Shown here: positions 20,968 through 37,135 of the stretch, in pieces
Layout: each line of letters opens with the position of its first letter
How positions within the stretch are numbered: the first letter of the stretch is position 1
Source: Kiritimatiellia bacterium
Lineage (GTDB): Bacteria; Verrucomicrobiota; Kiritimatiellia; CAIQIC01; Lenti-01
Direction: 5' to 3'
Length of the DNA: 64,000 bases
NCBI GenBank assembly: GCA_050176815.1
Contig: JBFXHR010000012.1
Span: 15 to 64,014 of the forward strand
Notes under the pieces: model-generated
The model's database searches: none
Seen by the model: only the letters and a program-made list of their open reading frames with translations
Told to the model about the DNA's origin: nothing
Translations under genes and position numbers: made by a program

Positions 20968-21133
20968 CCTCCCCGATGGCCACCCCCCTTTTCATCCCCA
21001 CCCTGAACGAGCTCGAAGCCATGCGCGTCGTCCGGCCCCAGATCGACCGCTCGCGGGTGGACCGGATTCTGGGGGTGGGCGGTTCGACCGACGCCGCCGC
21101 CGGGCATGTCCGCGAGACCGGGTTCCGGAATTA
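20968..21133 (+). pseudogene. Duplicated 5' fragment of the GT2 gene at 17793 (54-codon remnant ORF) immediately upstream of a TMTC-like gene
   Basis: 20965-21080 is about 85-90% identical to 17790-17905 (MATPLFIPTLNELEAMRVVRPQIDR... versus MATTLFIPTLNELEAMRVVLPQIDR...), then diverges and stops at TAG 21131-21133. Confidence 0.5.
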
Positions 21134-21145
21134 GATTTCTCCGCC

Positions 21146-23212
21146 ATGCAAGCCCAGGTCGCATCCCAACCGCGGTCGGCGCCCCACCCCCCGGCCGGCC
21201 GACGGCGGGTTTGGTTGCTTCCGGCTCTGTTGGCGTTGGTTCTGTTTGCCCCGGCCGTCGGATTCGATTTCATCAACTACGACGACGACCGCTACGTCTA
21301 CGACAATCCCCGCGTCACGGGCGGACCGACCGTGGAGAATCTGCGATGGGCGTTCACGGCCGTCCACGAGGACTGGTGGCTGCCGGTCCTGTGGATTTCC
21401 TACATGCTCGATTCGGCCCTGCTGGGCAAGGCTCCGGGGGGCTATCACCTGGTGAACGTGCTGTTGCACGCCGCGAATGCGGGCCTGCTCGGCTGGACGC
21501 TCTATCGCCTGACCCGCGCCCGCTGGCGCAGTCTCGCGGTGGCCGCGCTGTGGGCCGCGCATCCGCTGCGCATCGAATCCGTCGCCTGGATCACCGAACG
21601 CAAGGACGTGCTGAGCGGACTGTTCTTCTTTCTCGCGCTGCTCGCCTACGTCCGCCACGTCGAACGACCGTCCGCCGTTCGTTTCGGCCTCGTGTTCGGC
21701 GCCATGCTTCTCGGCCTGGCATCCAAGGCCTCGGTCATCGTCCTGCCGATTCTCCTCCTGTTGCTGGATTTCTGGCCCCTGCGCCGCGCCGAGCTCCCGT
21801 GGACGTCCGGCGCGGGAAAACCGTGGCGGCGCCTCGTCGCGGAAAAAATCCCGCTGTTTGCGCTGGCCGCGGTCTTTGCGGCCATCAATCTGCGCACGCA
21901 CGCCGGCGGAACCGGGCTCGGGTTGGATTACTCTTGGAGCCAGCGGGTCGCGTTGATTCCCGGCAACGTCTGGACCTACCTGCGGCTCGTGGCCTGGCCC
22001 GCGCATCTTTCCGTCTTCTATCCCGAAAACGATGCCGTGCCGATCGGCTCCGCGCTGGTCGCCCTGGCGGGACTGGCCGGGCTGACCGGCTGGTTCGCCC
22101 GACAAGCCCGGCGGCGCCCCCATTGGCCGGTCGGCTGGCTTTGGTTTCTCGTCGCGCTCCTGCCGATTCTCCGCGGCGTCCGCCTCGGAAACGCGGCCTA
22201 TGCCGACCGCTTCACGTATCTCCCTTCCATCGGGTTGACCCTGGCCGTCGTCTGGCAAGCGATGGGCGGCGCGGAGCGGAGCGCCGCCGCCCGCAGGGCA
22301 GGAGCGGGAGTCCTCGCGCTCCTGCTGGCCGCGTGCGTGGGCCAGACGGCCGCGGTTCTGCCGGCGTGGCGCCATTCGATTGGGCTTTATGAATACGCCC
22401 TGCGCTCGGAACCGGCCAACCCCGTTCTGCTCAACAATCTCGGAACCGCCCTGATGCTGGAGCAACGCAACGAAGAGGCCCTCGATCATTTCCGGCGCTC
22501 CCTCGCCGCCAATCCGGCCTATCTGCCCGCCCGGGCCAACCAGGCGCTGGTCCTGCATCGACTCGGCCGCCTCGCGGAAAGCCGGGCCGCGGCGGACCAA
22601 GGCCTCGACTGGGAACAGAATTCGCCGCCCCTCAACCACATGCTGGCCTCGCTTCTGCTGGGCGAAACGCCGCCGGAACCTCGGGCCGCGTTGCCGGATT
22701 CCCTCTCCCCCCGGGATCTGGGCCGACTGCTGGAACGCGGCTCCCTTCCGGCCGTGCTGGAGTTCCGCGATCTCTACCGCCGGCCGGCGCCCGCGCTCCT
22801 CGCGGAAATCCGGTCCGTCCAACTGGACTACGTCCGGCTGTGGCGCAGCGGCCGGAAGGACCGGGCCTGGCGTTTTTTCCTCTTTGCGCTGGCCGCCAAT
22901 CCGCACGACGTGTCCCTGCTCAACGATGCCGCCTGGCTGCTGGCCACCGATTCCGCGCCGCCCGCCGATGCGCGGCGCGCCCTCCTCCTGGCCCGGCGGG
23001 CCCATCGCCTCGCCGCGCCCCATCTCCAGGCTTCCATCCTCGACACGCTCGCCGCCGCGCTCGCCGCCGCCGGCCACTTCGACGAAGCGCAACGTGCCGC
23101 GCAAGAGGCCATCGGCTTGGCCACGCAAGCCGGCGACGCCCGCGCCGCCGACCAGATTTCCGCGCGCCTCGAAACCTATCGCAACCGCAAACCGTGGCGA
23201 GACGCCCCGTGA
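21146..23212 (+). CDS. TPR-repeat protein with N-terminal GT-C (PMT/TMTC-like, DUF1736-type) membrane domain. Putative protein O-mannosyl/glycosyltransferase, paralog 1.
   Basis: N-terminus FDFINYDDDRYVYDNPRV...HLVNVLLHAANAGLL...WAAHPLRIESVAWITERKDVLSGLFF, a signature shared with eukaryotic TMTC and bacterial DUF1736 proteins. C-terminal half is TPR-like repeats. Confidence 0.75.
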   Translation: MQAQVASQPRSAPHPPAGRRRVWLLPALLALVLFAPAVGFDFINYDDDRYVYDNPRVTGGPTVENLRWAFTAVHEDWWLPVLWISYMLDSALLGKAPGGYHLVNVLLHAANAGLLGWTLYRLTRARWRSLAVAALWAAHPLRIESVAWITERKDVLSGLFFFLALLAYVRHVERPSAVRFGLVFGAMLLGLASKASVIVLPILLLLLDFWPLRRAELPWTSGAGKPWRRLVAEKIPLFALAAVFAAINLRTHAGGTGLGLDYSWSQRVALIPGNVWTYLRLVAWPAHLSVFYPENDAVPIGSALVALAGLAGLTGWFARQARRRPHWPVGWLWFLVALLPILRGVRLGNAAYADRFTYLPSIGLTLAVVWQAMGGAERSAAARRAGAGVLALLLAACVGQTAAVLPAWRHSIGLYEYALRSEPANPVLLNNLGTALMLEQRNEEALDHFRRSLAANPAYLPARANQALVLHRLGRLAESRAAADQGLDWEQNSPPLNHMLASLLLGETPPEPRAALPDSLSPRDLGRLLERGSLPAVLEFRDLYRRPAPALLAEIRSVQLDYVRLWRSGRKDRAWRFFLFALAANPHDVSLLNDAAWLLATDSAPPADARRALLLARRAHRLAAPHLQASILDTLAAALAAAGHFDEAQRAAQEAIGLATQAGDARAADQISARLETYRNRKPWRDAP

Positions 23213-23458
23213 GTCCCCGCGCCGGACTTTCCGCCCCCACGCCTTTTTCCGCCTTTTTCCAAGGCCGTGTTTTTCGCCGATCTTTCGGCGGACGCGGCAT
23301 TTCCGCCGCATTTCTTCGGGTAAAACGATGCTGATTTATTTTTCACTTTTTGCATTGCCAGACCTTGCGCACCCGTGGTAAAAACAAAACCAAGATTGGA
23401 AAGGGTTTTTTCTTTCCACCGACAGTTTAAAAAGAAACGAATACCAAAGGAGAACACG

Positions 23459-24184
23459 ATGAAGAAATTGGCAATTGGTTTGACGATCGCCCTGGTGGCG
23501 GGAATGGCCTCGGCCGCGATTCTCGGATCGGACGACTTTAGCTATACCGGCGCGTTGACCGCCAATGGCTGGGTCGCCTACAGCGGCACGGACGGCAGCG
23601 TCACCGCCAACGGCAGCGTGGCCGCGGTCGGTTCGGGCGCGGAAGACATCCGCATGACGGCGTTTGGCGATCAGGGCAGCGGGACGGTCTATGCGTCCTT
23701 CACCCTGAACCTGCTTTCGGCCGCCACGGGCAGCGCCTACACGTTCGGCTTCATCGATGGTGCGACCATGGAAAGCCGCTGGGGCTTCACCGCCACCGCC
23801 TCGGACTACAGCATGGCCTCCTACGGCACGGGCACCGCCGTTATCGGCAACTCGTCCGCGATGTCCTTCTCGACGGACTACCTGATCACGATGAGCTACA
23901 ACGCCACGACGTTCACCCACAGCCTGTGGATCAACTCCGACGGCACCGATGAAGCCACCCCCGACATGACCCTCTCCGCGGGGACCAACACGGGCATCGA
24001 CAGCTTCTTCATCCGCCAGGCGACTCCGTTCGGCGCGGGCAGCGCGTCCTACACGGTGGACAGCCTGGTGGTCGGCTCGACGTTCGCGGACGTTACTCCG
24101 GCCGCCGTTCCCGAGCCCGCCACGATGGGCCTCCTCGGCCTCGGCGCCCTCGCGATGGTCCTCCGCCGCAAGATGAGCAAGTAA
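23459..24184 (+). CDS. PEP-CTERM sorting-domain secreted protein
   Basis: Signal peptide MKKLAIGLTIALVAGMASA. C-terminus VPEPATMGLLGLGALAMVLRRKMSK (PEP motif, TM helix, basic tail). Ser/Thr/Gly/Asn-rich body. Shine-Dalgarno aaggag 7 nt upstream of the ATG. Confidence 0.8.
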   Translation: MKKLAIGLTIALVAGMASAAILGSDDFSYTGALTANGWVAYSGTDGSVTANGSVAAVGSGAEDIRMTAFGDQGSGTVYASFTLNLLSAATGSAYTFGFIDGATMESRWGFTATASDYSMASYGTGTAVIGNSSAMSFSTDYLITMSYNATTFTHSLWINSDGTDEATPDMTLSAGTNTGIDSFFIRQATPFGAGSASYTVDSLVVGSTFADVTPAAVPEPATMGLLGLGALAMVLRRKMSK

Positions 24185-24246: not shown

Positions 24247-24330
24247 CGGCGGTTCAGGTAGGGACGGCTCTCCGAGCCGTCCGTTTTCTTGCATATTCGG
24301 ACATCTCTTAGAGATGTCCCTACCACATCG
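24247..24330. repeat. REP-like compound palindromic element (GGTAGGGACG...hairpin...hairpin...CGTCCCTACC), copy 1, at the 3' end of the RAYT gene
   Basis: ggtaggGACGGCTCtccGAGCCGTCcgttttcttgcatattcGGACATCTCttaGAGATGTCCctacc. Its GTAGGGAC arm overlaps the RAYT stop codon. Confidence 0.6.
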
Positions 24331-24781
24331 GCGTCGGGACCTCCCACACGTGCGGCCAGTCCTCTGCTCGTGCAGTCAGCCCTTTGCGCACCGGATTCTG
24401 CCGGACGTAAAACGCCTTCTCTTCGTATTCCGTCGCGTGGCGGATGCGATGGTCGAAGAAATCCCGCGGCCATTCGATTCCCAACGTCCGCGCCGTCCAG
24501 CGCTTCCATTCCCTCATCACGGCCTTCATGCCGGGATTTTCCGGGAAACTGGCCATCAGATGCACGTGGTCGGGCATAACCAGAAACAGGCGCACCCACC
24601 AGCGGCCGGCCTCCATTTGCCGGCGGGCGTTCTCCCACAGCCGCCGGGGGCAGTCCATTTCCAGCAAGGGCGAACCGCCGCGCGATTTCGCGTTCAGGGT
24701 AATGAAAAACACCGCGCCGGCGGCGACCCACGGCGGCACCTCGTGCGGCAATCGCTTCCGCTGTGGAAGGAAATCGTTCAT
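24320..24781 (-). CDS. REP-associated tyrosine transposase (RAYT; IS200/IS605 Y1-HUH family, TnpA_REP-like)
   Basis: 153-aa product from MNDFLPQRKRLPH... with HUH motif MPDHVHLM. Flanked on both sides by the same palindromic repeat family. The ORF-track upstream extension is rejected. Confidence 0.7.
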   Translation of the reverse strand: MNDFLPQRKRLPHEVPPWVAAGAVFFITLNAKSRGGSPLLEMDCPRRLWENARRQMEAGRWWVRLFLVMPDHVHLMASFPENPGMKAVMREWKRWTARTLGIEWPRDFFDHRIRHATEYEEKAFYVRQNPVRKGLTARAEDWPHVWEVPTPMW

Positions 24782-24839: not shown

Positions 24840-24915
24840 CCGGAAGGTAGGGACGCTTCCACGAAGCGTCCGCGCTCTTCCCCAAACGGACGCCTCGCAG
24901 AGGCGTCCCTACCAT
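24840..24915. repeat. REP-like compound palindromic element, copy 2, just upstream of the RAYT start
   Basis: ggtaggGACGCTTCcacGAAGCGTCcgcgctcttccccaaacGGACGCCTCgcaGAGGCGTCCctacc. Same architecture as copy 1. Confidence 0.6.
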
Positions 24916-27023
24916 CCCTCCCGGTAGGCCTTTCCCTCCCGATACAGCGCCAGCCGCTTTTCGATTTCCCGCGCCAGCGCTTCATCCTTCGCCAACGCCA
25001 GCGCCTGCTCGCCGGCTTCCACGGCGCCCGCGTAATCTCCGGCCGCCGCCCGCGCGACGCCCAGCGTGTCCAGCACCGTTCCGGATTTCCATTGCGTTGC
25101 TTCCACGGCCCGTTCGGCCAAGCCCACCGCCCGCGCGACGATGTCCGGCGGCGTGCGTTCGTCCGTCGCCGCCAGCCAAGCCACGTTGTTCAGCAACTGG
25201 ACGTTCTGGCCCCACTCCGATTCAAGCAACCGATCGAAGTACCGCCAGGCGTAGGCCCGACCGCCCATCTGCCATTGAACCACGTAGTGCGGAAACAGCG
25301 ATTCATAGGCGGGCTGAATCGTCCCGCCCGCCCGGCGCGCGGATTCCACCAGCCGCCGGGCCTCGCTGGAACGTCCGGCCTCCAGATAGGCCCGGAGAAG
25401 TTCGTTGAGAATCCTCGCGTCGGCCGGCCGTCGCCGCCGCGCATCCTGCAGATGCGGAATCGCCTCCCCCGGGCGGCCTTCATGGAGCAGGGACATTCCC
25501 CAGGCGGTGGGGACCATCCAATATGCAGAGGGATCGTTCTGCCAAGACCGCAACACTTCGCGCGCCTCCTCGGTCCGGCCTTGCAGGACTTGGACGTATC
25601 CCAGATTGCCGGCGCAAATCGAGCGCTCCGCCTGATTTTGCACCTGAAGATCCAGCACCCGCTCGAAATGGCTTTCCGCTTCCTCCACGTCCCCCCGGGA
25701 AAAATGCCAGACCCCGGAGTTCATCAAAGCAATCGGCTGCCCGGGCGAAATCGCCAGCGCCCGCTCCAGCAAAGCGCCCGAGTCTTTCCAGACCGGCAAT
25801 TGCCGACGGGTCCATCCGGCCGCCACCGCCAAGGACAATCCCCCCGCCACGATCCACGCCCGGGTCCGCCCTCCCGCCGTTGCCAGCCATCCGGCTACGG
25901 CCAAAGACAGACCCATGGCCGGCAAGTAGGCGTAGCGGTCCGCGCGGCTCTGCGCGCCAAACGCCACGATGCCGCTCACCGGCAGCAGCGCCAAGACGAA
26001 CCACAGCCAGCCGACCAGTCCGGCCGGCCGGGTCCGCCGTCCATGTCCAACCGCCCACGTCCCCGCCGCGATCAGCGCCGCCGCGACCGCCACGCGCGTG
26101 GCGGTCAGCCCCGCATCGGCATACAGCACCGCCAGATTCCGGGGAACCAGCGTCCGCCACAGGTAGAAAACGATGTGGAGCGGCACGCGCGCCAGCCGCG
26201 CGCCAAGGCTTTCCGGATGCAGGCTTCCGGCCGCTTCGTGTCCCAGCACCGACAAGGCCGCCGAGGCGGCGGCCAGCCCCCAGAACAGCCATTTTTCCGC
26301 GATCAGACCGGGCCACTTCCGCAGATCCTGAGCCGTCCACTTCACCCGGCCCAACGGCCAAACATCCAATAGGAGCAGCAAGCCCGGCACGACCATCAGG
26401 GTCGATTTAGACATCAGACCCAACGCGAGCAACCCCGCCGCAGCGTAGAACCAGCCCCGCGCGCGGCGCGTTCCCGAACGGCTTTGGACATAGGCTCCAA
26501 GGCACAGGAGAAAAAACAGGCCGCTCAGCACGTCCTTGCGGCAGGAAACCCACGCAACGGCCTCCACCCGCAACGGATGCCACGCCCAGAACAGCGCGGC
26601 CCAGCAGGCCGCCCAGCGGTTCCCGGTCCAGCGGCGCAGCAGCCCAAACAACAGCACGGCATTCAGGGCGTGCAGCAGAACGTTGGTGAAGTGAAACGGA
26701 AACGGCCGGCGCCCGCCCCATTCCACGTCCAGCGCGTAGGACAAGCCCGTCAGCGGAATCCACAGGTTTTCCTGCATCGTCCCGAAAATCGTCCGCACCC
26801 CTTCCCCCGTGAAGCCGTTGGCCACCGCGGGATTGTCGACGACGTAGCGGTCGTCGTCCAGCAAGACGAAGTCGTAGCCCGTCGCCGGCCAAAAGACCGC
26901 CAAGGTTGAAGCCAAAATCAACAGCCCCAGGAATACATCAACGTGGCGGCGGAAAAAGCCGGTTGGCAGCGGAGATTTCACGCTGGTCTTCCTAGCCGAT
27001 TGGCAAACCGAAAACCAGTTCAA
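24909..27023 (-). CDS. TPR-repeat / GT-C (TMTC/PMT-like) membrane glycosyltransferase, paralog 2
   Basis: YDFVLLDDDRYVVDNPAV...HFTNVLLHALNAVLL...WAWHPLRVEAVAWVSCRKDVLSGLFF. C-terminal TPR repeats. Same domain order as 21146..23212. Confidence 0.75.
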   Translation of the reverse strand: MNWFSVCQSARKTSVKSPLPTGFFRRHVDVFLGLLILASTLAVFWPATGYDFVLLDDDRYVVDNPAVANGFTGEGVRTIFGTMQENLWIPLTGLSYALDVEWGGRRPFPFHFTNVLLHALNAVLLFGLLRRWTGNRWAACWAALFWAWHPLRVEAVAWVSCRKDVLSGLFFLLCLGAYVQSRSGTRRARGWFYAAAGLLALGLMSKSTLMVVPGLLLLLDVWPLGRVKWTAQDLRKWPGLIAEKWLFWGLAAASAALSVLGHEAAGSLHPESLGARLARVPLHIVFYLWRTLVPRNLAVLYADAGLTATRVAVAAALIAAGTWAVGHGRRTRPAGLVGWLWFVLALLPVSGIVAFGAQSRADRYAYLPAMGLSLAVAGWLATAGGRTRAWIVAGGLSLAVAAGWTRRQLPVWKDSGALLERALAISPGQPIALMNSGVWHFSRGDVEEAESHFERVLDLQVQNQAERSICAGNLGYVQVLQGRTEEAREVLRSWQNDPSAYWMVPTAWGMSLLHEGRPGEAIPHLQDARRRRPADARILNELLRAYLEAGRSSEARRLVESARRAGGTIQPAYESLFPHYVVQWQMGGRAYAWRYFDRLLESEWGQNVQLLNNVAWLAATDERTPPDIVARAVGLAERAVEATQWKSGTVLDTLGVARAAAGDYAGAVEAGEQALALAKDEALAREIEKRLALYREGKAYREGW

Positions 27024-27051
27024 ATCCGGCGCCGGCCGTTTTCGCAGGCAA

Positions 27052-28878
27052 CTATTCGCGATAGGGCGTTCCGGATCGATACAGATCCAGACGCTTCCGG
27101 ATCGCTTTCGCCTCTACCGGATCCGTTGTCAACGCCAATGCTTGCTCGCCGGCTTCGACGGCCCCCGCGAAATCCCCGGCGGCCGCGCGGGCCACGCCCA
27201 AGGTGTCCAGCATCGGCGCGAATTTTCCGTGGGTCCAAGCCACCGCGCGCTCCGCGTGTTCGGTTGCGCGCGCGCCCACTTCCGGCGTCGCCTCCGGATC
27301 CGTGGCCAGCAACCAGGCCAGATTGTTCAAGGCCCGCGCGGACAGCAAATCTTCTGCAACCGCCGCTTGGTAATGCCGGACGGCCTCTTTCTTGCGCCCC
27401 GCCGCGACCAGGGCGTTGGCGAGATTGACGCGCGCCTTGTTGCGCTTGGGCTGGATTTCGAGACTGCGCTGCAGATGGATTTCGGCTTCCGGCCAGCGGC
27501 CCTGCTCCATGTACCACATCCCCAGATTCCCGTGGGCAAGCGCATTGCGCTCCACAACGGAAATCACCTGCTGGAACAGGGTCTCCGTCGTCCGCCACAC
27601 GGCCGTCTGCCCGCGCGAAACCACCGCCAGCGCAATCGCCAGTACCGTCGCGGATGCCAGGAGGTAGGGACGCCTCTCCGAGGCGTCCGTTGACCTGCTT
27701 TGCCGGACGCCTTGGCAAGGCGTCCCTACCTGCCGGTCCCGGATTTTCCCCGCCCCCCAAACCGCCGCCACGATCAAACCAATATGCGGCAAATAGGTGT
27801 AGCGATCCGCCCAGGCCTGGCTCCCCACCTGCACCAGCCCGATCATCGGCACCAGCGCCCCTAAAAACCAGAACCAACCCACGGTCAACCAAGGCCGGCG
27901 GCGGAACTGGCCGGCCGCCCCCGCCGTCAAAACGGCCACCAACGCCAGCGAAACAGCCATCCGAAGCAGGGAATGGCCTCCGATCGGATGGGGATAGAAG
28001 GCGGCCAGGCCCGTTGGCCAAACCAGCATCCGCACGTACTCCGAATAGGCCACGCCCGCGTGGACGATACGCGTGGCCAACGGCAACACGTCCAATGCGC
28101 CAACGGCTCCGCCTTTCCCCTGCGCCCAAACCGTCGCGGCGCACGACCCGGCCGCCAGCGCGAACAACGGCCATTTTTCCGCCGCCAGTTTCCGCCACGG
28201 TTCCGCCGGCCAACGGCCCAGCGGCCAGACGTCCAGCAGCAGCAGCAGAAACGGAAGCGTCACCCAGGTCGGCTTGGCCATCAGGCTCAAGGCAAAAAAC
28301 ACCGCCACCGGGCCAATTCGAAACGTTGTAGGCCGGGTGCCCCCACCCGGCGCATTCCGTCCATGCATCCCCACCGCCAGCAGTCCGAACAGCATCGCCA
28401 ACACGTCCTTGCGCTCCGAAATCCAGACGACCGATTCCACGCGCAGCGGATGCACCGCCCACAGCGCCGCCGCCATCCACGACAACCCCGCGCGTCGCGT
28501 CATCCGGCGCAATGCCCAAAACAGCAAGATCGCGTTGGCCGCGTGCAGCAGCAGGTTCGTGAGATGGTGCCCGGCCGGATTCAAGCCGTACAGTTCCACG
28601 TCCGCCATGTGCGACAGCCAGGCTAGCGGGTGCCAGTTGGAGGCATGCCCCGTCGTCAAGGCCCAGCGAACGGCGGCGATCGTCAGCCCCTGCGCCACCT
28701 GCGGATTCTCGGTCACGTACACGTCGTCGTCGAACCGCACGAATCCGCATTCCAGCGCCCCGCCGAACGCGAAGAACACCAGCGCCGCCAGGCCCGCGGC
28801 GGCGACGGCCCCCCGCGCCCGCCGGGCCCTTTCCGGGAACGCCGTTTCCCCCAGCATCTCCTCGTTTCTTGCCGCCAT
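27052..28878 (-). CDS. TPR-repeat / GT-C (TMTC/PMT-like) membrane glycosyltransferase, paralog 3, carrying an in-frame REP insertion
   Basis: FVRFDDDVYVTENPQV...HLTNLLLHAANAILL...WAVHPLRVESVVWISERKDVLAMLF. C-terminal TPR repeats. Contains the extra loop segment ...VGTPCQGVRQSRSTDASERRPY... encoded by a REP element. Confidence 0.7.
   Translation of the reverse strand: MAARNEEMLGETAFPERARRARGAVAAAGLAALVFFAFGGALECGFVRFDDDVYVTENPQVAQGLTIAAVRWALTTGHASNWHPLAWLSHMADVELYGLNPAGHHLTNLLLHAANAILLFWALRRMTRRAGLSWMAAALWAVHPLRVESVVWISERKDVLAMLFGLLAVGMHGRNAPGGGTRPTTFRIGPVAVFFALSLMAKPTWVTLPFLLLLLDVWPLGRWPAEPWRKLAAEKWPLFALAAGSCAATVWAQGKGGAVGALDVLPLATRIVHAGVAYSEYVRMLVWPTGLAAFYPHPIGGHSLLRMAVSLALVAVLTAGAAGQFRRRPWLTVGWFWFLGALVPMIGLVQVGSQAWADRYTYLPHIGLIVAAVWGAGKIRDRQVGTPCQGVRQSRSTDASERRPYLLASATVLAIALAVVSRGQTAVWRTTETLFQQVISVVERNALAHGNLGMWYMEQGRWPEAEIHLQRSLEIQPKRNKARVNLANALVAAGRKKEAVRHYQAAVAEDLLSARALNNLAWLLATDPEATPEVGARATEHAERAVAWTHGKFAPMLDTLGVARAAAGDFAGAVEAGEQALALTTDPVEAKAIRKRLDLYRSGTPYRE
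27660..27728. repeat. REP-like compound palindromic element, copy 3, located inside CDS 27052..28878 and translated in-frame
   Basis: ggtaggGACGCCTCtccGAGGCGTCcgttgacctgctttgccGGACGCCTTGgcaAGGCGTCCctacc. The reverse complement translates in the gene frame as QVGTPCQGVRQSRSTDASERRPYLL. Confidence 0.6.
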
Positions 28879-29055
28879 GCCCCCTATTGATGGCAGGAGC
28901 GCCAGCCGGATGCAAGTCCCGCCCGGCCCGGGCGCCCCCGCCGGTCCACGGACGTCGCCTTCGGGAATGGCGCGCCCGGAACCCGAAACGAGCCCTTGAC
29001 TTTTTAATCCAATGTTGTACTATCCGATATCGAATCATTGATTGGACCCCACGAG

Positions 29056-29553
29056 ATGACCCAGCCCAAGCCCCATCCCGATCCGCGGTTTCGCCGCGAC
29101 TGCGCCCATCTGGACCGCGTGCCCGCCGGCAGCATGCTGCCGTTGTGGCGGCGCGTCCACCAGGAGCTGATGATCCGCGGCCAGAAATGGAAGCTGCCCG
29201 CCAACGTGGCCCTGGTTCTCGTCCATCTGCATCTCCATCCCGAGGATTCCGAGCCGGCCTCCATGGCCGCCGCCAACTATTTTCCCCGCCAAACCATCAC
29301 CTTCATCCTCGACGCCCTGGAACGGGAAGGCCTGGCCACCCGCCAACCCCACCCCAACGACCGGCGCCGCAAACTCGTCGCGCTGACGCCCAAGGGTAAG
29401 AAAAAGGCCGAGGAGATGGTCCAAGACATGATCCGCTTCGAGTCCGCCGCCCTCCGCACCATCGAAGACGTGGATATCCCGCGCCTCCAATCCTTCCTCG
29501 CCCGCTATGCCGACGCCTTGGCCGCCCAAAACGACCGCGATTTCAAGCCTTGA
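29056..29553 (+). CDS. MarR-family transcriptional regulator
   Basis: Winged-helix region LPANVALVLVHLHLHPEDSEPASMAAANYFPRQTITFILDALEREGLATRQPHPNDRRRKLVALTPKG. The stop overlaps the next gene start. Confidence 0.7.
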   Translation: MTQPKPHPDPRFRRDCAHLDRVPAGSMLPLWRRVHQELMIRGQKWKLPANVALVLVHLHLHPEDSEPASMAAANYFPRQTITFILDALEREGLATRQPHPNDRRRKLVALTPKGKKKAEEMVQDMIRFESAALRTIEDVDIPRLQSFLARYADALAAQNDRDFKP

Positions 29554-30947
29554 AAGGAATGTCCATGCGTTTTCCCTCCATCGTCCTTCCGGCCGCCGGC
29601 CTGCTTCTGTCCGGATGGCTGGCGTCCGGCTGCCGCAGCTTCGAGCCGGAGCGCGCCCGCCGCGAGCAAACCGAGGCGTTCGCCTCGAATCTCGCCGTCC
29701 TCGCCGAGGCCGAACTGGCCAAGCCCCTCTCGCTCGACGACTGCATCCGCATCGCCATGACCAACAACTACGCGGTGCGCAAGGCCGACCTCGACCGCGA
29801 ACTCTACCGCATCGGCAAAAACGTCGCCTTCACCGCCTTCCTGCCGAACGTCGCCGTTTCCGCCGGATATAGTTCCTACGACAAGGAAGTGCCGCAGCAG
29901 CACGAAAAACGGTTTGGCACCGCCGACCTCGCGGCCAGCATGCCGATTTTCATGCCGTCCACCTGGTTCCTCTACGCGGCCGCCCGCCACGGCTACGCCG
30001 CCGCCGGCGTCGCCGCCCACTACGTGCGCCAAGGCATCGTCCTGCAAACCAGCATCGATTACTACAACGTCCTCGTCCAGCGGGACACCATCGCCGCGCT
30101 GGAAAGCCAGCTCGAAGCCGCGCGCGAAACCGCCGGCCGCGTGTCCGGCCTCGCCGACGAAGGTCTCGTGGCGAAGTGGGAGGGCGACCAGGCGGTCTTC
30201 GCCGCCGAACTGCGCGAAACCGAGCTGAACCGCGCCCGCCGCCAGCTCGCCGTCCTCCGCGGCGAACTGCTCCAGGGCCTGGGCCTCTCCCCCGACGCTC
30301 CCCTCGAGCTGTCCGGCGAAAGCGGCGAAAAATCCATGCCCGAAGGCTCCGTCGAGGATCTCGTCTTGAAGGCCCTCGAAATCCATCCCGAACTGGCCAT
30401 CGCCGACCGGCAGGTCGTCATCCAGGACCACCAGGTGCGACAGGCGTTCTGCAACTTCCTGCCGACGATCTCCCTCTTCTCCACCGGCTCGTGGACGGGA
30501 AACGACCTGGCCACCCACGCCGAAAACTGGGTCTCCGGATTCAGCGGCGCGTGGACGCTCTTCGACGGCCTCGCCAACGTCGCGCGCTACCGGGCCGCCA
30601 AGGTCGAACGGCAGCAGACGAAGCTCGAACGCGAGAACGCCTTTCTCTCCGTCATGGTCGGCGTCGTCGCCGCCGAGGCCGCCGCGCGCGACGCCGCCGA
30701 AGGCGCCCGCGTCCGCCGGCGCGCCTACGACGTCGCCGCCGCCAAATGGGCGGACTACGACGCCAAGGCCCGCGAAGGCCTCATTCCCCTTGGCGACGCG
30801 CTCGACGCGCGCGGCGCCATGGACCTCGCGCAGGTCGCGCTCGTCCAAAGCCGATATCAGGAAAAAATCGCCATCGCCAACCTCGAACTGGCCATGGGCC
30901 TCACCCTCGTCCCCGAACCCCGGAATGCAACGAAAGCAGAGAAGTAA
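29550..30947 (+). CDS. TolC-like outer-membrane efflux factor lipoprotein
   Basis: Signal peptide plus lipobox LASGC. Two-repeat OEP architecture with coiled-coil segments. 465 aa. Confidence 0.7.
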   Translation: MKGMSMRFPSIVLPAAGLLLSGWLASGCRSFEPERARREQTEAFASNLAVLAEAELAKPLSLDDCIRIAMTNNYAVRKADLDRELYRIGKNVAFTAFLPNVAVSAGYSSYDKEVPQQHEKRFGTADLAASMPIFMPSTWFLYAAARHGYAAAGVAAHYVRQGIVLQTSIDYYNVLVQRDTIAALESQLEAARETAGRVSGLADEGLVAKWEGDQAVFAAELRETELNRARRQLAVLRGELLQGLGLSPDAPLELSGESGEKSMPEGSVEDLVLKALEIHPELAIADRQVVIQDHQVRQAFCNFLPTISLFSTGSWTGNDLATHAENWVSGFSGAWTLFDGLANVARYRAAKVERQQTKLERENAFLSVMVGVVAAEAAARDAAEGARVRRRAYDVAAAKWADYDAKAREGLIPLGDALDARGAMDLAQVALVQSRYQEKIAIANLELAMGLTLVPEPRNATKAEK

Positions 30948-30948
30948 C

Positions 30949-32118
30949 ATGAAACCCAACCGCATCGCCCTTGCCCTCCTCGCCGCCGCGCTGTCCGCCG
31001 CCGTCCTCGCGGCCGGCTGCGGAAAAACGGAATCCGCCGCCGCAACGGAAGAAACCGTCCGCGCCCTGGCCGTCCGCGCCCAAGCCGTCGCCCCGCGCGA
31101 TTTCGAGCGCCGATTGACCGTGCAGGGCACGCTCGAAGCCGAAAACTTCGCCCACGTGGCTTCCCGCGCCGACGGCAACCTCGACGCCATCTGGGTGGAC
31201 GAAGGCGACGCCGTCGTCGCCGGCGAGACCGCCCTCTTCCAGGTCGATGCCGCCAACCGCGAAAACGCCGTGGCCATCGCCCGGCAGGATCTCGCCGTCG
31301 CCCAGGCTTCCCTCGCGGTCTCCCAGGCCTCCGCCGCCAAGGTCGAAGCCGAATCCCGCAAGGCCACGCTCGATTTCGAGCGCTACGAACGCCTGCACAA
31401 GGACGGCAAAGTCAGTCCCAACGAATTCGAAGCCGCCCAAGTCGCCCGCGCCCAGGCCCAGGCCGGCATCGCCGTCGCCGAGGCGCAGGTGGATCTCGCC
31501 GAGCGCCAGGTCAAGCAGGCCGAGGCCTCCCTGGCCATCGCGGAGAAAAACCTCGCCGACACGAAGATCGTTGCGCCGATCTCGGGCGTGGTCAGCTCCC
31601 GCACCGCCGAGCCCGGCGAGCAGATGTCCGTCGGCAAGGTCCTCCTGCGCATCGACGATCTCGCCAGGGTCGAAGCCGCCGCCTACCTCCCCGCGCAATA
31701 CTATCCCGACGTGGCGCCCGGCCAAACCATGTTCCGCCTCGGCGTCGGCGGCCGCGAAGCCGGCACGCACGTGGTCACCTACCGCAGCCCCACCATCGAC
31801 CCCACCCTGCGCACCTTCGAAATCAAAGGGCTCGTCGAAAACGCCGGCGGCCTCGCCGTCCCCGGCCAAATGGCCGACGTGACCCTCGTCTTCGAAACCC
31901 GCAAGGGCCTGGCCGTGCCGTCCGCCGCCGTCCTCGTCCGCGCCGGCCAAACGGTCGCCTTCGTCGCGCAAGACGGCCGGGCCGTCGCCCGCCCCGTCGA
32001 AACCGGCCTCCAAAACGACGGCTGGACCGAAATCCGTTCGGGCCTCGAACCCGGCGAAACCGTCGTCGTCGAAGGCCAAACCCAGCTGCACGACGGCATG
32101 GCCGTCGACGTGCTTTGA
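30949..32118 (+). CDS. RND efflux membrane fusion protein (periplasmic adaptor, AcrA/HlyD family)
   Basis: Lipoprotein signal LAAGC. Coiled-coil hairpin (LAVAQASLAVSQASAAKVEAE...), lipoyl and beta-barrel domains. Start at ATG 30949. Confidence 0.8.
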   Translation: MKPNRIALALLAAALSAAVLAAGCGKTESAAATEETVRALAVRAQAVAPRDFERRLTVQGTLEAENFAHVASRADGNLDAIWVDEGDAVVAGETALFQVDAANRENAVAIARQDLAVAQASLAVSQASAAKVEAESRKATLDFERYERLHKDGKVSPNEFEAAQVARAQAQAGIAVAEAQVDLAERQVKQAEASLAIAEKNLADTKIVAPISGVVSSRTAEPGEQMSVGKVLLRIDDLARVEAAAYLPAQYYPDVAPGQTMFRLGVGGREAGTHVVTYRSPTIDPTLRTFEIKGLVENAGGLAVPGQMADVTLVFETRKGLAVPSAAVLVRAGQTVAFVAQDGRAVARPVETGLQNDGWTEIRSGLEPGETVVVEGQTQLHDGMAVDVL

Positions 32119-32287
32119 GAAAACTGCCATGAACAGCCATTCCTCTCACGGAGATGCACAGAGGTTCACGGAGGAGGGCATCTTGTCGGCTTCGCTCCGT
32201 AAACCTCTGTGGTCCTCTGCGAGAGAAAACTCTTTGGGCGGTTTGTTTTTTGATTTTGCCGCCATCCATTAATTAGGAGCCCCCCCC

Positions 32288-35200
32288 ATGTTCCTCGCCA
32301 ACGCCTCCACCAAACGCCCGATCGCGATGGGCTGCCTGCTCATCGCCCTCATCGGGCTCGGCCTCAATTCGTTCCGCAAGATTCCCATCGAAAACATGCC
32401 CGCGGTGGACATCCCCTACGTCGCCGTCGTCACCACCTGGGTCGGCGCCTCGCCCGAGGACGTCGAAAAGGACGTCACCAAGCCCATCGAAGACGCCGTC
32501 TCCGGCATCGACGGCCTCAAGCACATCGAATCGTCCAGCATGGACAACGTCTCGCAGGTCGTCCTCGAGTTCAACCTCGCGGTCGACGTCGACGTCGCCG
32601 CGCAGGACGTCCGCGAAAAAATCGATTTCGTCCTCAGCAAGCTGCCGGAAGACGCGGACCGCCCGGCGATCATGAAAATCAACATCAACGCGTCGCCCAT
32701 CGCCAACGTGTTCCTCTCCGGCGATGCGCCCCTCGACGATTTGTACGACTACGCCGACAACGTCGTCGCCGACCGCTTCGCCACCGTGCCCGGCGTGGGC
32801 GAAGTCCAGATCATCGGCGGCAACGAGCGCGAGGTGTGGGTCGAGCTCGACCGCGACGCCCTCGGCGCCGCCGGCCTGACCACCGCCGACGTCGTCGGCG
32901 CGCTCCAGGGCGGCATCCTCAACCTCCCCGGCGGCCGCATCCGCGAAGCCGGCAGCGAATATTTCATCCGCTTCGACGCCGAATACGAAAACGCCGCCGA
33001 CATCGCCGATCTCGAAGTCGCCAACCGCGACGGCGCCCGCCGCCGCCTCGGCGACCTGGGCACCGTCCGTTTCGCCACCGAAGAAGTCCGCCAGCGCGCC
33101 ATCCTCGACGGCCAGCAGGGCATCGTGCTCAAGATCGTCAAGAAAGCCGACGCCAACATCGTCGCGCTCGTCCGCGAAATCCAAAAGCGCTACGAAGACA
33201 TCCGCCCCACCCTGCCCGGCGGCATGGAACTGACGTGGATCTCCGACGAATCGGCCACCATCCGCGAATCGGTGGCTTCCGCCGTCTCCGCGGTCTGGCA
33301 GGCCGTGCTGATCTGCGCCATCGTCCTGTTCGTGTTCCTCGTCAACGTCCGCACCACCATCATCGTGGCCATCACGATGCCGGTCACCATCGTCGTCAGC
33401 CTCTTCTTCATGCAGCTCGCCGGCCAGACCCTGAACATGCCCACCCTGATGGCCATCGGGCTGTCCACCGGCGTGCTGGTGTCCAACTCCATCGTCGTGC
33501 TGGAAAACATCGTCGAAAAATTCGAGACGATGGACAACCACTGGGAGGCCGCGCGCATCGGCACGTCCGAAGTCGCCGTGGCCGTGCTGGCCTCCGCCGG
33601 CACCAACGTCATCGTGATGTTCCCCATCGCCATGATGTCCAGCCTCGCCGGCCGCATGCTGGCGCCCTTCGCCATCGCCACGCTCATCGTCAATGCCGTC
33701 TCCATTTTGACCAGCTTCACCCTCACCCCCATCCTCGCCGCCCTGCTGCTCGAGCCCGCCTCCCGGCGCCGCGACAACGCCTTCGTCCGCTTCGGCCGGC
33801 GCTGGAGCGGCGGCTTCGACCGCTTCGGCCGCGGCTTCACCGGCGTCATGCGCCGCATCGCCGCCCATAAGCGCTACAACCTCCCCGTCGTCCTCGGCTT
33901 CGTCGCCCTCTTCTTCTTCACCATGAAAGTCGGCGGCGGCCGCCTCGGCTTCAGCTTCTTCGAAACCGCCGACGAAGGACGCGTCTTCATCCGCGTCGAA
34001 CTCCCGCCCTACTACGACCTGGAGCAGACCGTCGCGCGCATCGAAAAGATCCAGGCGCGCCTCGGGGAATTTTCCGACATCGAGCACGTCCTTACCACCG
34101 CCGGCAAAGCCGAATCCATGAGCGGCCAGGCCAGCGAAGGCGTCTACATGGGCCAGATCGAGCTGATGTTCAAATCCAAGCTCGAGCGCGACTGGAAGAT
34201 CCAGGACCGCCTGTCCGAAATCCGCGCGCTCCTGAGCGACGAGACCGACTGCATGATTTCCGCCTCCGTCCCCGGCCACATGGGCGGGCAGTCGTTCCAG
34301 ATCGACCAGAACCTCGTCGGCGAAGATCTCGACGTGCTCGACGCCACCGCGCTGGCCATCCAGGCCGCGGCCCGCGACATCCCCGGCGTGGACCAGCTCC
34401 AAACCACCGTGCGCGACACCAAGCCCGAAATCCGCGTGGTGCCCAAGCGCACCGTGCTCTCCGATCTCGGCCTGCCGGCCGCCCGCCTCGCCGCCATCGT
34501 CCGCGGCAACGTCGAAGGCATCGAAGCCGCCGACTTCAAGCGCGGCGACCGCACCTACGACGTCCGCGTCAAGCTCGCCGAACGGCCCGGCAAGGACCAG
34601 ATCCGCCAGTTCCTCCTGCCCGGCGCCGACGGCCGCCCCATTCCGCTGGAAACCGTCGCCGACGTCGTGGACGACCGCGCCAAGATCCAGATCTACCGCG
34701 TGGACAAGCAGCGCACCGTCAAGATCCTCGGCGACATCCAGGAAGGCTACACCATGTCCGGCATCGGCAACGAAATCGAGCGCGCCATCGCCGACCAGGC
34801 GCTCCTGCCCGCCGGCTACACCTTCACAAGTTCCGGCATGAGCGAAATGCTCGGCGAAGTCGTCGCCGACTTCGGCGAGGCCATCCTGCTGGCCACCTTC
34901 CTCACCCTGTTGACCCTCTCCGCCATCCTCGAATCGTGGAGCCGTCCCGGCTTCGTGCTGCTCACCCTGCCCATGGCCCTGATCGGCGTCGTCGGGGCCT
35001 TGGCCATCGGCCAGTTCGCCCTGACCATTTTCGCCCTGCTCGGCATCCTGATGCTGATCGGCATCGTCGTGAACCCCGCCATTCTCATCGTGGACAAGAT
35101 GGCCCAGCACATCCGCGAAGGCACCTGCCGCCGCGAGGCCATGCTGACCGCCATGGCCGAGCAGTTCCGCCCCGTCCTGATGGTGATCCTGGCCTCCGGT

Positions 35201-35395
35201 CTCGGCATGCTGCCGATGGCCATCAGCCGCGGCATCGGCTCCGAAAACCGCGCCGGCATCGGCACCGCCTCCGTCGCCGGCGTCCTCGTCGCCGGCGCCC
35301 TCACCATGCTCGTCCTGCCGCTGATCTACACCCTCTTCACCGGCAAACCCAAAGCCACCCGACCGGACGACGCCAAGGAACCTTGCAAAGATTGA
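32288..35395 (+). CDS. RND-family efflux transporter permease (HAE1/AcrB-like)
   Basis: 1035 aa, 12-TM plus two large periplasmic loops. Conserved N-terminus MFLANASTKRPIAMGCLLIALIGLGLNSF typical of AcrB/CzcA-type pumps. Confidence 0.9.
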   Translation: MFLANASTKRPIAMGCLLIALIGLGLNSFRKIPIENMPAVDIPYVAVVTTWVGASPEDVEKDVTKPIEDAVSGIDGLKHIESSSMDNVSQVVLEFNLAVDVDVAAQDVREKIDFVLSKLPEDADRPAIMKININASPIANVFLSGDAPLDDLYDYADNVVADRFATVPGVGEVQIIGGNEREVWVELDRDALGAAGLTTADVVGALQGGILNLPGGRIREAGSEYFIRFDAEYENAADIADLEVANRDGARRRLGDLGTVRFATEEVRQRAILDGQQGIVLKIVKKADANIVALVREIQKRYEDIRPTLPGGMELTWISDESATIRESVASAVSAVWQAVLICAIVLFVFLVNVRTTIIVAITMPVTIVVSLFFMQLAGQTLNMPTLMAIGLSTGVLVSNSIVVLENIVEKFETMDNHWEAARIGTSEVAVAVLASAGTNVIVMFPIAMMSSLAGRMLAPFAIATLIVNAVSILTSFTLTPILAALLLEPASRRRDNAFVRFGRRWSGGFDRFGRGFTGVMRRIAAHKRYNLPVVLGFVALFFFTMKVGGGRLGFSFFETADEGRVFIRVELPPYYDLEQTVARIEKIQARLGEFSDIEHVLTTAGKAESMSGQASEGVYMGQIELMFKSKLERDWKIQDRLSEIRALLSDETDCMISASVPGHMGGQSFQIDQNLVGEDLDVLDATALAIQAAARDIPGVDQLQTTVRDTKPEIRVVPKRTVLSDLGLPAARLAAIVRGNVEGIEAADFKRGDRTYDVRVKLAERPGKDQIRQFLLPGADGRPIPLETVADVVDDRAKIQIYRVDKQRTVKILGDIQEGYTMSGIGNEIERAIADQALLPAGYTFTSSGMSEMLGEVVADFGEAILLATFLTLLTLSAILESWSRPGFVLLTLPMALIGVVGALAIGQFALTIFALLGILMLIGIVVNPAILIVDKMAQHIREGTCRREAMLTAMAEQFRPVLMVILASGLGMLPMAISRGIGSENRAGIGTASVAGVLVAGALTMLVLPLIYTLFTGKPKATRPDDAKEPCKD

Positions 35396-35417
35396 ATCCC
35401 GGCATATTCTACCTCCC

Positions 35418-36563
35418 ATGCGCATCCTGCATCTCGTCAGCAACTTCCGGTGGACTGAACGCATCGAGCCTGCGGCCGATCTGGCGATTGCCCAACGCCA
35501 GCTCGGCCACGACGTGCGCTACGCCTGCGGACACAACAAGGGCGCGCCGCCCGAGGACTGCATCCAGGGCCGCGCCGCCCGCAAGGGACTCGTTTTCGAC
35601 GACCGCTTCGTTTTCGACAAGCACTTCCGCCCCCTGTCGGCATGGAAGGACCTGGCCCGGCTTAACCAGTACATCGCCGATTTCAGGCCCGACGTCGTCC
35701 ATTGCCATCTGCCCAACGACCACATGCTCGCGGCCCTGGCCATCCGCCACACGTCGCCCCGGCCGCTCCTCGTGCGGACGCTCTACGAGCCGGACGGCCC
35801 GCAGTGGCCCCTGCGGTACAAATTCATCAGCAGCCCGCCCACGGACGGCCTGATCCTCGTGACGGAGCAAACCCGCCCCCGGACGGGCCCGCGCTTTGCC
35901 GAACGTCCGGATCGCGTCGCGGTTCTGGTGCCCGGCATCGACGTCGACGAATTCGACGGACGCCGCGACCTGGGCAAGCTGGACCACGTCGCGGGGCCGG
36001 CCGGCTCGTTCGTCGCCGGCATGGTTACCTCGATCAACCAGCGCCGGCGCGTGGATCTGGCGCTGGAGGCCGTCGCCCTGCTGGCGCCCCGCCATCCCCG
36101 CCTGCGCCTGCTCATCGCCGGCCGCGGCAAAGTCGACGTCTTCGTTTGGGAACCCGCCCGCCGCCTCGGCATCGCCGACCGGATCCTTCTCCCCGGCTAT
36201 TGCCGGAACGACGACCTCGTCAGGGCCTACCACACGATGGATGCCCTCCTCTATCCCTTCCACGGCACCGACCAGTCCTGCCGGACCGTGCGCGAAGCGT
36301 TGGCGTCCGGCTTTCCCGTCGTCGCCTCGGCCCTCGGCATCGTGCCGGATCTCGTGAAAGACGGCGAAACGGGATTCCTGTCCGAATTCAACGCCCCCGC
36401 CCTGGCCGGCGCGCTGGAAAAACTGCTGCGTCTCGATCCCGCGCGGCGGGCCCGAATGGCCGCGCAGGCCACCGCCGACGCCCGCGCGCGGTTCAGCCGA
36501 ACCACGCAAGCCCGGTTGGTTCTCGAGTTCTACGAAAGGCTGCGCCGGTTGAGAACCGCCTGA
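35418..36563 (+). CDS. GT4-family glycosyltransferase (glycosyl transferase group 1)
   Basis: MRILHLVSNFRWTERIEP... N-terminal GT-B domain. C-terminal EX7E-like region (LYPFHGTDQSCRTVREALASGFPVVASALGIVPDLVKDGETGFL). Confidence 0.7.
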   Translation: MRILHLVSNFRWTERIEPAADLAIAQRQLGHDVRYACGHNKGAPPEDCIQGRAARKGLVFDDRFVFDKHFRPLSAWKDLARLNQYIADFRPDVVHCHLPNDHMLAALAIRHTSPRPLLVRTLYEPDGPQWPLRYKFISSPPTDGLILVTEQTRPRTGPRFAERPDRVAVLVPGIDVDEFDGRRDLGKLDHVAGPAGSFVAGMVTSINQRRRVDLALEAVALLAPRHPRLRLLIAGRGKVDVFVWEPARRLGIADRILLPGYCRNDDLVRAYHTMDALLYPFHGTDQSCRTVREALASGFPVVASALGIVPDLVKDGETGFLSEFNAPALAGALEKLLRLDPARRARMAAQATADARARFSRTTQARLVLEFYERLRRLRTA

Positions 36564-36580
36564 CCGGACCGGATGCCTCC

Positions 36581-37135
36581 ATGATCCGCACGACGGTTCC
36601 CGTTGCCGCACTGGCCTTGTTGCTGAATGCCGCTCCGGCGGCGGCCGCGCGAACATGGTTCGCCGAGGACGATCCGCCCCTCCTTTCCCTCGGCATCGGC
36701 GCCGCCCAGATTTTCGACGGCCACCAGGAAATCTTCTGGGGTGTCGAATACCGCCCCGCCTTCCGGTTTTTCCACGTCGGTCCCTGGTTCCTGTTCGGCA
36801 CCGGCAAAAACGACGAATTTTACGCGGCCGTCGGCATGCTGGCGGACGTTGAACTCGGCCGCGGCTGGGTGCTCACGCCAAGCTTCGGCGCCGGCTACTA
36901 CAACGCCTCCAGCGGCCTCGATCTGGGGTTCAACGCCGAATTCCGAACCGCCATCGAAATCGCCAGGCGCTTTGGCCACGGCCAGCGGATCGGCCTTTGC
37001 TTCGCCCATCTCTCCAACGGTTCGCTCAGCGACAAGAATCCCGGCACTGAAACCCTGGGAATCTCCTACTCGTTCCCAATCGATTTTTTGTTCCGCCGCG
37101 CGCCGACCGCCGCCATCCCGAACCGGACGGAATGA
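36581..37135 (+). CDS. PagL-like lipid A 3-O-deacylase family outer-membrane protein
   Basis: Signal peptide. Small beta-barrel size (184 aa). Conserved His/Ser segment GLCFAHLSNGSL matching the PagL HxSN catalytic motif. Terminal aromatic-rich strands. Confidence 0.55.
   Translation: MIRTTVPVAALALLLNAAPAAAARTWFAEDDPPLLSLGIGAAQIFDGHQEIFWGVEYRPAFRFFHVGPWFLFGTGKNDEFYAAVGMLADVELGRGWVLTPSFGAGYYNASSGLDLGFNAEFRTAIEIARRFGHGQRIGLCFAHLSNGSLSDKNPGTETLGISYSFPIDFLFRRAPTAAIPNRTE

Follow-up and report, generated by a model that had tools for sequence, protein, structure and literature searches.

Palindromic repeats tagged by GTAG (repetitive extragenic palindromic, REP, elements) have been reported within the open reading frames (ORFs) of known proteins (Di Nocera, De Gregorio and Rocco, 2013; BMC Genomics 14:522, PMC3733652). 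More than half of those intragenic inserts are dimers or groups of REPs encoding 20–30 amino acids, some ORFs have been hit twice, and TAG stop codons often derive from the GTAG ends (PMC3733652). Genes for tRNA synthetases and DNA repair are frequent hosts, and the top intragenic count was obtained in Opitutus terrae, a relative within the Planctomycetes-Verrucomicrobia-Chlamydiae (PVC) group (PMC3733652). In-frame GTAG REP dimers in real genes are hence already known from 2013, with the Rickettsia palindromic elements (RPEs) described even earlier, and a single case is ordinary. The 64,000-nucleotide stretch of Kiritimatiellia DNA analyzed here in its entirety (contig JBFXHR010000012.1; henceforth the window) harbors a REP doublet at 27664..27729, in frame within the coding sequence (CDS) of a GT-C-fold membrane glycosyltransferase with C-terminal tetratricopeptide repeats (TPR) (27052..28878, minus strand, 608 aa). 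The unusual aspect is the recurrence of REPs in one loop of the protein family encoded by this gene. The evidence presented below makes it probable that the doublet is a REPIN (an inverted REP doublet) of a REP family widespread in the PVC group and partnered by a REP-associated tyrosine transposase (RAYT), that it lies in frame in an intact GT-C/TPR gene where it is tolerated as a loop, and that the loops of this gene family have been occupied repeatedly.

The REP doublet and its host gene

The 66-nt element comprises a left REP (27664..27688), a 16-nt spacer (27689..27704), and an inverted right REP (27705..27729), and reads GTAGGGACGCCTCTCCGAGGCGTCC, spacer, GGACGCCTTGGCAAGGCGTCCCTAC. It forms two GC-rich hairpins in inverted orientation, both perfect and with stems of 7–10 bp, and is bounded by GTAG and CTAC, the flanking tetranucleotides for which a check had been proposed in an earlier annotation made from the sequence alone (henceforth the first-pass annotation). 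In the family to which it belongs, designated F1, the REP hairpin corresponds to GTAGGGACGCC-N7-GGCGTCC, with GTAG/CTAC on both doublet ends. The first-pass annotation recognized a REP-type mobile palindrome in this gene, and the span it assigned (27640..27735) encloses the doublet. The element is, however, a REP doublet (REPIN), and not the single REP copy then described, and its palindrome is one base longer on each side (GGTAGGG...CCCTACC), with 0 mismatches over the terminal 12 nt. Whereas 0.42 occurrences of the octamer GTAGGGAC would be expected, the window has six, a number that none of 100 shuffled sequences reached. All six octamers are the ends of three exact 66-nt doublets (24258..24323, 24847..24912, and 27664..27729), and this excess over both expectation and shuffles discards a chance match. 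The mRNA-sense doublet forms a very stable hairpin, a single long structure of -53 kcal/mol (z = -9.2), in line with the structured RNA that the first-pass annotation had considered possible; the fold of the DNA strand yields z = -6.7.

The product of the host gene is identical to a 'tetratricopeptide repeat protein' deposited at NCBI from a Kiritimatiellia metagenome-assembled genome (MAG). Read in the minus-strand frame of this gene, the doublet encodes residues 384–405 (...RDRQ VGTPCQGVRQSRSTDASERRPY LLAS...) without stops, and since its length equals 3 x 22 nt it causes no frameshift, in agreement with the in-frame read-through of some 22 aa that had been noticed previously. Three of the six combinations of orientation and frame are stop-free, so read-through of the doublet is not improbable in itself. 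In an alignment of 20 sequences, the protein conforms to each of the 80-odd invariant columns, including those of a DDD motif after helix 1. This acidic motif (FDDDVY) lies right behind the helix, in the first extracytoplasmic loop, D50 and D51 are invariant in 20 out of 20 sequences, and its role is probably catalytic. The AlphaFold (AF2) model of the protein is confident (pLDDT 83.9, pTM 0.84) and places residues 387–401 of the insert, with pLDDT below 50, between helices 363–384 and 405–427, the latter being the last membrane helix ahead of the TPR domain. Alignment with the neighboring paralog and 18 homologs likewise identifies the doublet as extra residues in the loop that precedes the last membrane helix. 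Both results bear out the earlier placement of the insert in a loop between transmembrane helices at the GT-C/TPR junction.

The product displays the GT-C membrane fold, and some JGI records label its homologs 'protein O-mannosyl-transferase'. For residues 1–430, however, no curated model in Pfam or NCBIfam (PMT, PMT_2, and TMTC included) gave a match, only TPR models being recovered for the protein, and a PDB sequence search with the membrane domain returned no match. The description of the gene as TMTC-like in the first-pass annotation hence stands for architecture and fold, but does not extend to family membership. In GT-C enzymes with the topology of PMT, PglB, or ArnT, the C-terminal soluble domain and the catalytic loop lie on the same side of the membrane. 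Because this topology puts the soluble domain together with the catalytic loop, the insert-bearing loop is likely to face the cytoplasm, and the positive net charge of the insert peptide (+2 in the window protein, and a mean of +4.6 over 18 homologs) fits that orientation.

A gene encoding a RAYT (24320..24781, minus strand, 153 aa) is located 3 kb from the doublet and can be recognized by profile scores, sequence motifs, and alignment with a known TnpA-REP. It scores 24.1 bits against Pfam Y1_Tnp (cut-off 23) and 78.9 bits, just under the cut-off of 80, against the NCBIfam model REP_Tyr_transpos ('REP-associated tyrosine transposase'). Its HUH motif takes the form HVH (residues 72–74), its catalytic tyrosine motif reads YVRQNPVRKGL (residue 125), and residues 20–144 align with E. 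coli TnpA-REP (PDB 4ER8; E = 1.6e-9). The gene has F1 doublets of 66 nt on either side. The doublet at 24258..24323 is directly downstream, contributes the RAYT stop codon through its GTAG end, and presents stems with compensatory changes (GGACGGC/GCCGTCC and GGACATC/GATGTCC). Compensatory stem differences between copies are the usual signature of REP families. The doublet at 24847..24912 lies upstream of the RAYT gene, and its GTAG end provides the TAG stop of the adjacent GT-C/TPR paralog (24909..27023). The C-terminus of this paralog reads ...YREGW*, versus ...YRE* in its relatives, and the REP appears, from the sequence, to have displaced the original stop codon. A fourth, slightly decayed F1 doublet of 68 nt (61110..61177), with GCAG for GTAG and one stem mismatch per hairpin, is intergenic, with tRNA-Gln (60820..60893, minus) on one side and tRNA-Pro (61415..61491, plus) on the other. 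Of the four F1 doublets hence present in the window, three are extragenic, and the stems differ from copy to copy by compensatory changes.

Two further GT-C/TPR paralogs are encoded nearby, and neither loop discussed in this work carries a REP in either of them. One is the adjacent paralog (24909..27023, minus strand, 704 aa), which served for comparison in the first-pass annotation; the other is located at 21146..23212 on the plus strand. Recent gene conversion between the two adjacent window paralogs was considered and discarded, as the DNA identity between their similar C-termini amounts to only 68.6%. Similarly, the ORFs at 27020..29038, 21131..23311, and 29505..31367 (all on the minus strand) were rejected as genes. 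They run across real genes, either in a different frame or antisense to them, have no Pfam matches, and show the wrong codon-position GC pattern, and they are regarded as artifacts of a 66% G+C content. The paralog cluster adjoins a gene for a protein with a PEP-CTERM sorting signal (23375..24184, plus strand), an arrangement also seen in the homologous loci L005, L008, L009, L010, L012, and L149, which suggests that these glycosyltransferases act on or with PEP-CTERM/exosortase cargo.

Repeated occupation and decay of REPs in the same loop

The length of the inter-domain loop was measured over the best 120 homologs as the segment between YLPHIGL and QTxVW. This segment spans 34–43 residues without an insert versus 54–62 residues in many close relatives, and the extra residues can be recognized as a translated F1 doublet (homologs are designated here by P numbers for proteins and L numbers for loci). 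The peptide reads VGTPRRGVRHDKKTDASARRPY in P0007, VGTPLRGVRSNGQTDASERRPY in P0051, and VGTPRRGVRPQQATILSARGPY in P0045, and the loop of P0006 contains the peptide of a decayed F1 doublet (PPRRGGRKTKSANLAASGSH). Overall, a REP-derived insert occupies the inter-domain loop in roughly 37 of the about 55 proteins that make up the close subfamily. All long-TPR relatives (700–960 aa) have a 39-residue loop with no insert, and insert-free proteins, such as L007 and P0025, are also found among close relatives.

Comparison of the DNA of twelve homologs resolves these inserts into a graded series. Perfect F1 doublets occupy the same loop in L001 (z = -11.6) and L012 (z = -13.2), stepwise decayed doublets are found in L003 (z = -8.9), L006 (z = -4.75), and L011 (z = -2.3), and the palindrome has been lost, with the extra segment kept, in L008 (z = -0.84) and L005 (z = -0.79). 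The insert starts directly behind the same D/E-R-x codons in the window gene, L006, L003, L012, L011, and the decayed L005 and L008, it is kept at the same codon position in homologs of 55–60% identity, and the length and positive charge of the peptide segment persist after the palindrome has decayed. The first-pass annotation had reasoned that orthologs with the same segment but no palindromic signature would contradict its proposal. Such orthologs exist in L005 and L008, but the intermediates in L003, L006, and L011 identify them as decayed REP doublets, which strengthens the REP origin of the insert and disfavors a purely recent event. The comparison of L001 and L007, which share 90% protein identity and only one of which carries the doublet, does not resolve into a clean insertion, since 27 nt have also been replaced.

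The same loop has also been occupied by other elements, with an F2 doublet in L004, an F2 singlet in L010, and an insert designated F3 in L009. F2 is a family of GTAG-tagged hairpins distinct from F1, and a singlet of this family (GTAGGCCGGGTGCCCCCACCCGGCGC; 28328..28353) constitutes a second in-frame REP in the host CDS that the first-pass annotation had missed. It is translated as APGGGTRPT (residues 176–184) in the loop between helices 153–174 and 188–201, with pLDDT below 50 at residues 179–183. The AF2 model has five segments with pLDDT below 50, two of which coincide with the F1 and F2 peptides, each located between helices. P0002, the closest homolog, has a 100% identical F2 core in the same loop, and P0021 has one in the other loop; in P0003, the positional ortholog of the window protein, it has decayed. 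F2 elements are also found in intergenic DNA. Two F2-type REPs are arranged tail to tail (CTAC...GTAG) at 4033..4119 of the window, between the genes at 1455..3971 and 4330..5709, and compensatory stem changes have been observed in the copy at 4094..4119, which shows a G/C swap (GCCGCGTG...CACGCGGC), and in the intergenic copies at 14142 and 14285 of L010.

F3 is a palindromic insert (GTATCCGGGGGCGTTGACCCCGG-like, with the peptide R-I/V-N-A-P-G / (A)G-V/I-N-A-P-G) present in L009 and about six other proteins. Its copies include L009 11148..11166, L003 2845..2867, and L012 588..610, the latter two sitting in the family's other loop. Within 1.1 Mb of DNA examined, no F3 copy was found in intergenic DNA, all occurrences falling in the two permissive coding loops of the GT-C/TPR family, and F3 is hence treated as a candidate element rather than as an established REP family.

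The mechanism proposed for these observations is as follows. Ribosomes would read through the stop-free doublet of 3 x 22 nt, and the product would acquire a 22-residue, positively charged, and disordered extension of the short loop that links the final two membrane helices, an extension that the enzyme would tolerate. The 22-residue insert of the window protein is probably both translated and tolerated in vivo. The inter-domain loop and the second loop would constitute the permissive sites of the gene family, in which REPs of two families, and of a third candidate family, would have been fixed repeatedly. Once fixed, the inserts would be retained while decaying, and could be moved between homologs by recombination.

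Conservation, mosaicism, and rival explanations

Several observations weigh against the proposed tolerance of selfish REPs in permissive loops. The concentration of inserts in one loop, with about two thirds of the close subfamily affected, exceeds what random insertion followed by filtering obviously predicts, and no other perfect F1 doublets were found in the 20-kb flanks of L001. The doublet is also more conserved than neutral tolerance predicts. L012 and L003 share 74% DNA identity, with 0.54 identity at four-fold sites over the whole gene, yet all 13 four-fold sites of the doublet are identical (p = 3e-4), and the doublet is the best-conserved stretch of the gene pair (0.92–0.95). In addition, the host gene is known from a single MAG contig, and no empty-site allele of it was found. 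The positional ortholog (P0003, in L009) lacks the F1 doublet but carries another palindromic insert at the site, the 3' two thirds of its gene are not closely related to the window gene, and a metagenome scan for an empty-site allele of the window gene recovered only relatives of at most 43% identity. The conservation of the doublet in intact coding copies would fit gene conversion by genomic REPs, RAYT-linked maintenance, or selection on the hairpin, and would not fit neutral drift of a loop.

The last of these options implies that the insert has been exapted, that is, that selection keeps it either for its mRNA hairpin, through a translational pause or mRNA processing between domains, or for its arginine-rich peptide, through an effect on membrane topology. 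The high stability of the hairpin in the window, L001, and L012 (-53 to -67 kcal/mol) agrees with this explanation, as do the synonymous-site conservation in the L012/L003 doublet, the 100% identity of the F2 core in the window, L004, and L010 despite a protein identity of approximately 64%, and the fact that peptide length and positive charge outlast the palindrome. Gene conversion by other REPs of the genome, however, also predicts conservation at the nucleotide level, and the absence of any insert in close relatives such as L007 and P0025 argues against a function. L005 and L008 have lost the hairpin itself and L011 retains a weak one (z from -0.8 to -2.3 in these three loci), indicating that the structure is dispensable. 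The persistence of the peptide in homologs whose hairpin has fully decayed (z of about -0.8) also weakens the regulatory RNA role suggested in the first-pass annotation. Furthermore, direct reading of the sequence reveals no U-tract after the hairpin at 27664..27729, which therefore is not an intrinsic terminator. Exaptation is, on balance, quite an unlikely explanation for the insert.

The dependence on a single contig raises the question of whether the 66 nt could be an artifact of repeat misassembly in a MAG, given that assemblers of short reads can be misled by repeats such as REPs. Nonetheless, the frame and the codons flanking the insert are continuous and conserved, and the same configuration is observed in independent assemblies from other samples, including L001 and L002 (from JGI and NCBI), L012, L003, L011, and L149–L151, which renders an assembly artifact extremely improbable.

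The host gene is the positional ortholog of P0003, and upstream of it positions 29038..40011 of the window are fully syntenic with 1..9824 of L009, comprising genes for MarR, an outer-membrane factor (OEP), MFP, a 1035-aa AcrB-type RND pump, Mem_trans, an ABC ATPase, and a patatin. Neither a RAYT gene nor F1 doublets are present in the corresponding 18.7 kb of L009. Since P0003 lacks the F1 doublet, the window copy looks as if the nearby RAYT system had inserted it in this lineage only. In its strongest form, this explanation regards the doublet as a recent, selfish, and mildly deleterious insertion marking the onset of pseudogenization, the latter being a possibility contemplated in the first-pass annotation. 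The perfection of the palindrome, with matching termini and two perfect hairpins, is in line with a recent event, as are the positional ortholog without the doublet and the proximity of the RAYT gene. The host gene, on the other hand, is free of frameshifts and stops, has kept its conserved residues, and yields a confident AF2 model, deeply diverged homologs retain this insert at the identical codon position, and inserts of this kind are also found in essential genes, such as those for leucyl-tRNA synthetase (LeuRS), cysteinyl-tRNA synthetase (CysRS), and MutL. A recent insertion on the way to pseudogenization is hence very unlikely, and the claim of incipient gene decay is abandoned here.

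The close relationship with P0003 is restricted to a part of the gene. In DNA, the first 240 codons are about 83–97% identical and the remainder 36–82%, and the nearest relatives of the window protein change by segment, from P0003 (82%) for residues 1–240, to group A (F1-doublet carriers) for residues 241–430, and to P0002 for residues 431–608. Due to this mosaicism, the doublet may have come with a recombined segment instead of by transposition. The window copy would hence owe its presence either to an insertion of the RAYT type or to a recombined 3' gene segment that brought it along, and the evidence accommodates both routes.

Mosaicism is not exclusive to the window protein. The identities of the N- and C-terminal parts diverge sharply in P0004/P0005 (70% and 100%), P0024/P0004 (71% and 96%), P0024/P0019 (95% and 69%), P0064/P0061 (78% and 94%, with F1 against F3), and P0118/P0045 (90% and 59%), and amount to 90% and 94% in P0013/P0025, a pair with and without the doublet. 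In these protein mosaics, the junction is located at or near the inter-domain loop. A comparison of L003 (2349..4409) and L149 (597..3477) brings one such junction to the DNA level. The two sequences are approximately 75% identical upstream of the doublet, the last mismatches are located in its left arm, at 2 and 11 nt from where the arm begins, and from there on they are identical but for one mismatch over approximately 860 nt, at which point the L003 contig ends. Three independent sequencing runs gave the same assembly of L149, while L003 is a single contig. Judging from these alignments, at least one DNA-level recombination breakpoint appears to lie inside a REP doublet. Searching the literature for recombination breakpoints associated with REPs yielded nothing relevant.

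These data admit a reading based on REP-mediated shuffling of modules, in which loop REPs supply shared homology, or fragile or hairpin sites, and the GT-C and TPR halves are swapped between paralogs or strains. REPs would then persist because they are located at a recombination junction, an explanation that is compatible with the tolerance of REPs in permissive loops and that gives the element a role. The switch between L003 and L149 inside the left arm, the five protein mosaics with sharply divergent halves, and the mosaic nature of the window protein itself all point in this direction. Against it, a single breakpoint has been resolved at the DNA level, and a short-read assembly chimera at the 66-nt repeat is possible for L003. 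Furthermore, P0024 is a mosaic without a doublet, indicating that recombination at the junction does not require a REP, and recombination junctions commonly coincide with domain boundaries in any family of paralogs. Shuffling mediated by REPs is the foremost of the alternatives, but is itself unlikely. A more specific proposal, in which loop REPs are portable recombination sites that reshuffle catalytic and TPR (substrate-binding) halves between paralogs and strains and are kept intact at the nucleotide level by conversion or by RAYT activity, must be deemed somewhat less likely still. If true, it would represent a prokaryotic analog of repeat-mediated exon shuffling.

REPs in other genes and comparison with known systems

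A scan for the F1 hairpin using one genome per species returned at least 120 stretches, from which 134 sites were sampled. The matches listed stem mostly from the Opitutales, Chthoniobacterales, Verrucomicrobiae, Lentisphaerae, and Kiritimatiellae, with some from Acidoferrum, the Ktedonobacterales, and the Actinomycetota. Among these listed matches, 19 of the 134 sampled sites are within long ORFs of coding-like codon composition, and Pfam identified real host genes in 8 out of 10 ORFs tested, with 7 exceeding Pfam's own cut-off; three different frames are used to read the REP in these genes. The hosts (loci L044, L108, L103, L128, L068, L055, and L071, in genomes from the Verrucomicrobiota, Opitutales, Acidoferrum, and others) encode a Ser/Thr kinase, LeuRS (in the region of the editing domain), CysRS, MutL (in the linker), Ham1, a PLD-family protein, and a Gate-domain membrane protein, with a GDSL-type lipase as a weaker eighth case. 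Intragenic REPs that preserve the reading frame can hence not be considered rare, as the first-pass annotation had them, a point also evident from the 2013 survey (PMC3733652). A search with the 30-aa REP peptide against 1.84 billion representative proteins matched only two junk tandem-repeat ORFs, the query being too short to inform. No members of the GT-C/TPR family were found among the REP-scan loci (L013–L132), and tblastn matched only metagenome relatives (L133–L147). The hot spot can therefore not be generalized beyond the close Kiritimatiellia subfamily.

Within that subfamily, one permissive loop of an expanded glycosyltransferase family that holds REPs ranging from pristine to decayed amounts to a natural time series for the conversion of selfish DNA into ordinary coding sequence. 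The conservation at synonymous sites and the breakpoint in the repeat make two questions testable: whether REPINs promote domain shuffling, and whether coding copies are homogenized by genomic REPINs. For annotation purposes, the strings VGTPxRGVR...TDASxRRPY and APGGGTRPT should be regarded as encoded by REPs and not as conserved protein motifs.

The host protein and its insert can each be compared with described systems. With GT-C protein O-mannosyltransferases and TMTC-type enzymes combining GT-C and TPR domains, the host shares the C-terminal TPR and an acidic DDD motif that follows membrane helix 1; unlike them, its membrane domain matches no Pfam PMT, PMT_2, or TMTC-specific model. The arrangement of the element is the canonical one of described REPIN-RAYT systems (Bertels and Rainey, 2011, PMC3116915; PDB 4ER8), with which it shares two inverted REPs separated by a short spacer, doublets on either side of a RAYT gene, the HUH and tyrosine motifs of the transposase, and compensatory changes in the stems. 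REPINs are described as overwhelmingly extragenic, whereas the copy at 27664..27729 is coding.

The RPEs of Rickettsia (PMC3733652, PMC10969869) offer a parallel for the coding location, as they are palindromic selfish repeats found in frame in functional genes and translated as an extra peptide compatible with the protein fold. However, RPEs of the RPE-1 type are approximately 150 bp long, and the short RPE-4 and RPE-6 belong to a class tagged by CGTC instead of GTAG. RPE sequences are, moreover, unrelated to F1 and F2, and the window elements have an identifiable partner RAYT alongside. The REPs surveyed in 2013 (PMC3733652) are likewise GTAG-tagged hairpin repeats, associated with RAYTs, and present as intragenic dimers. 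That survey covered neither the Kiritimatiellia nor the GT-C/TPR family, and what the family described here adds to it is the presence of several REP families in one loop, their graded decay, and a probable recombination breakpoint inside a REP.

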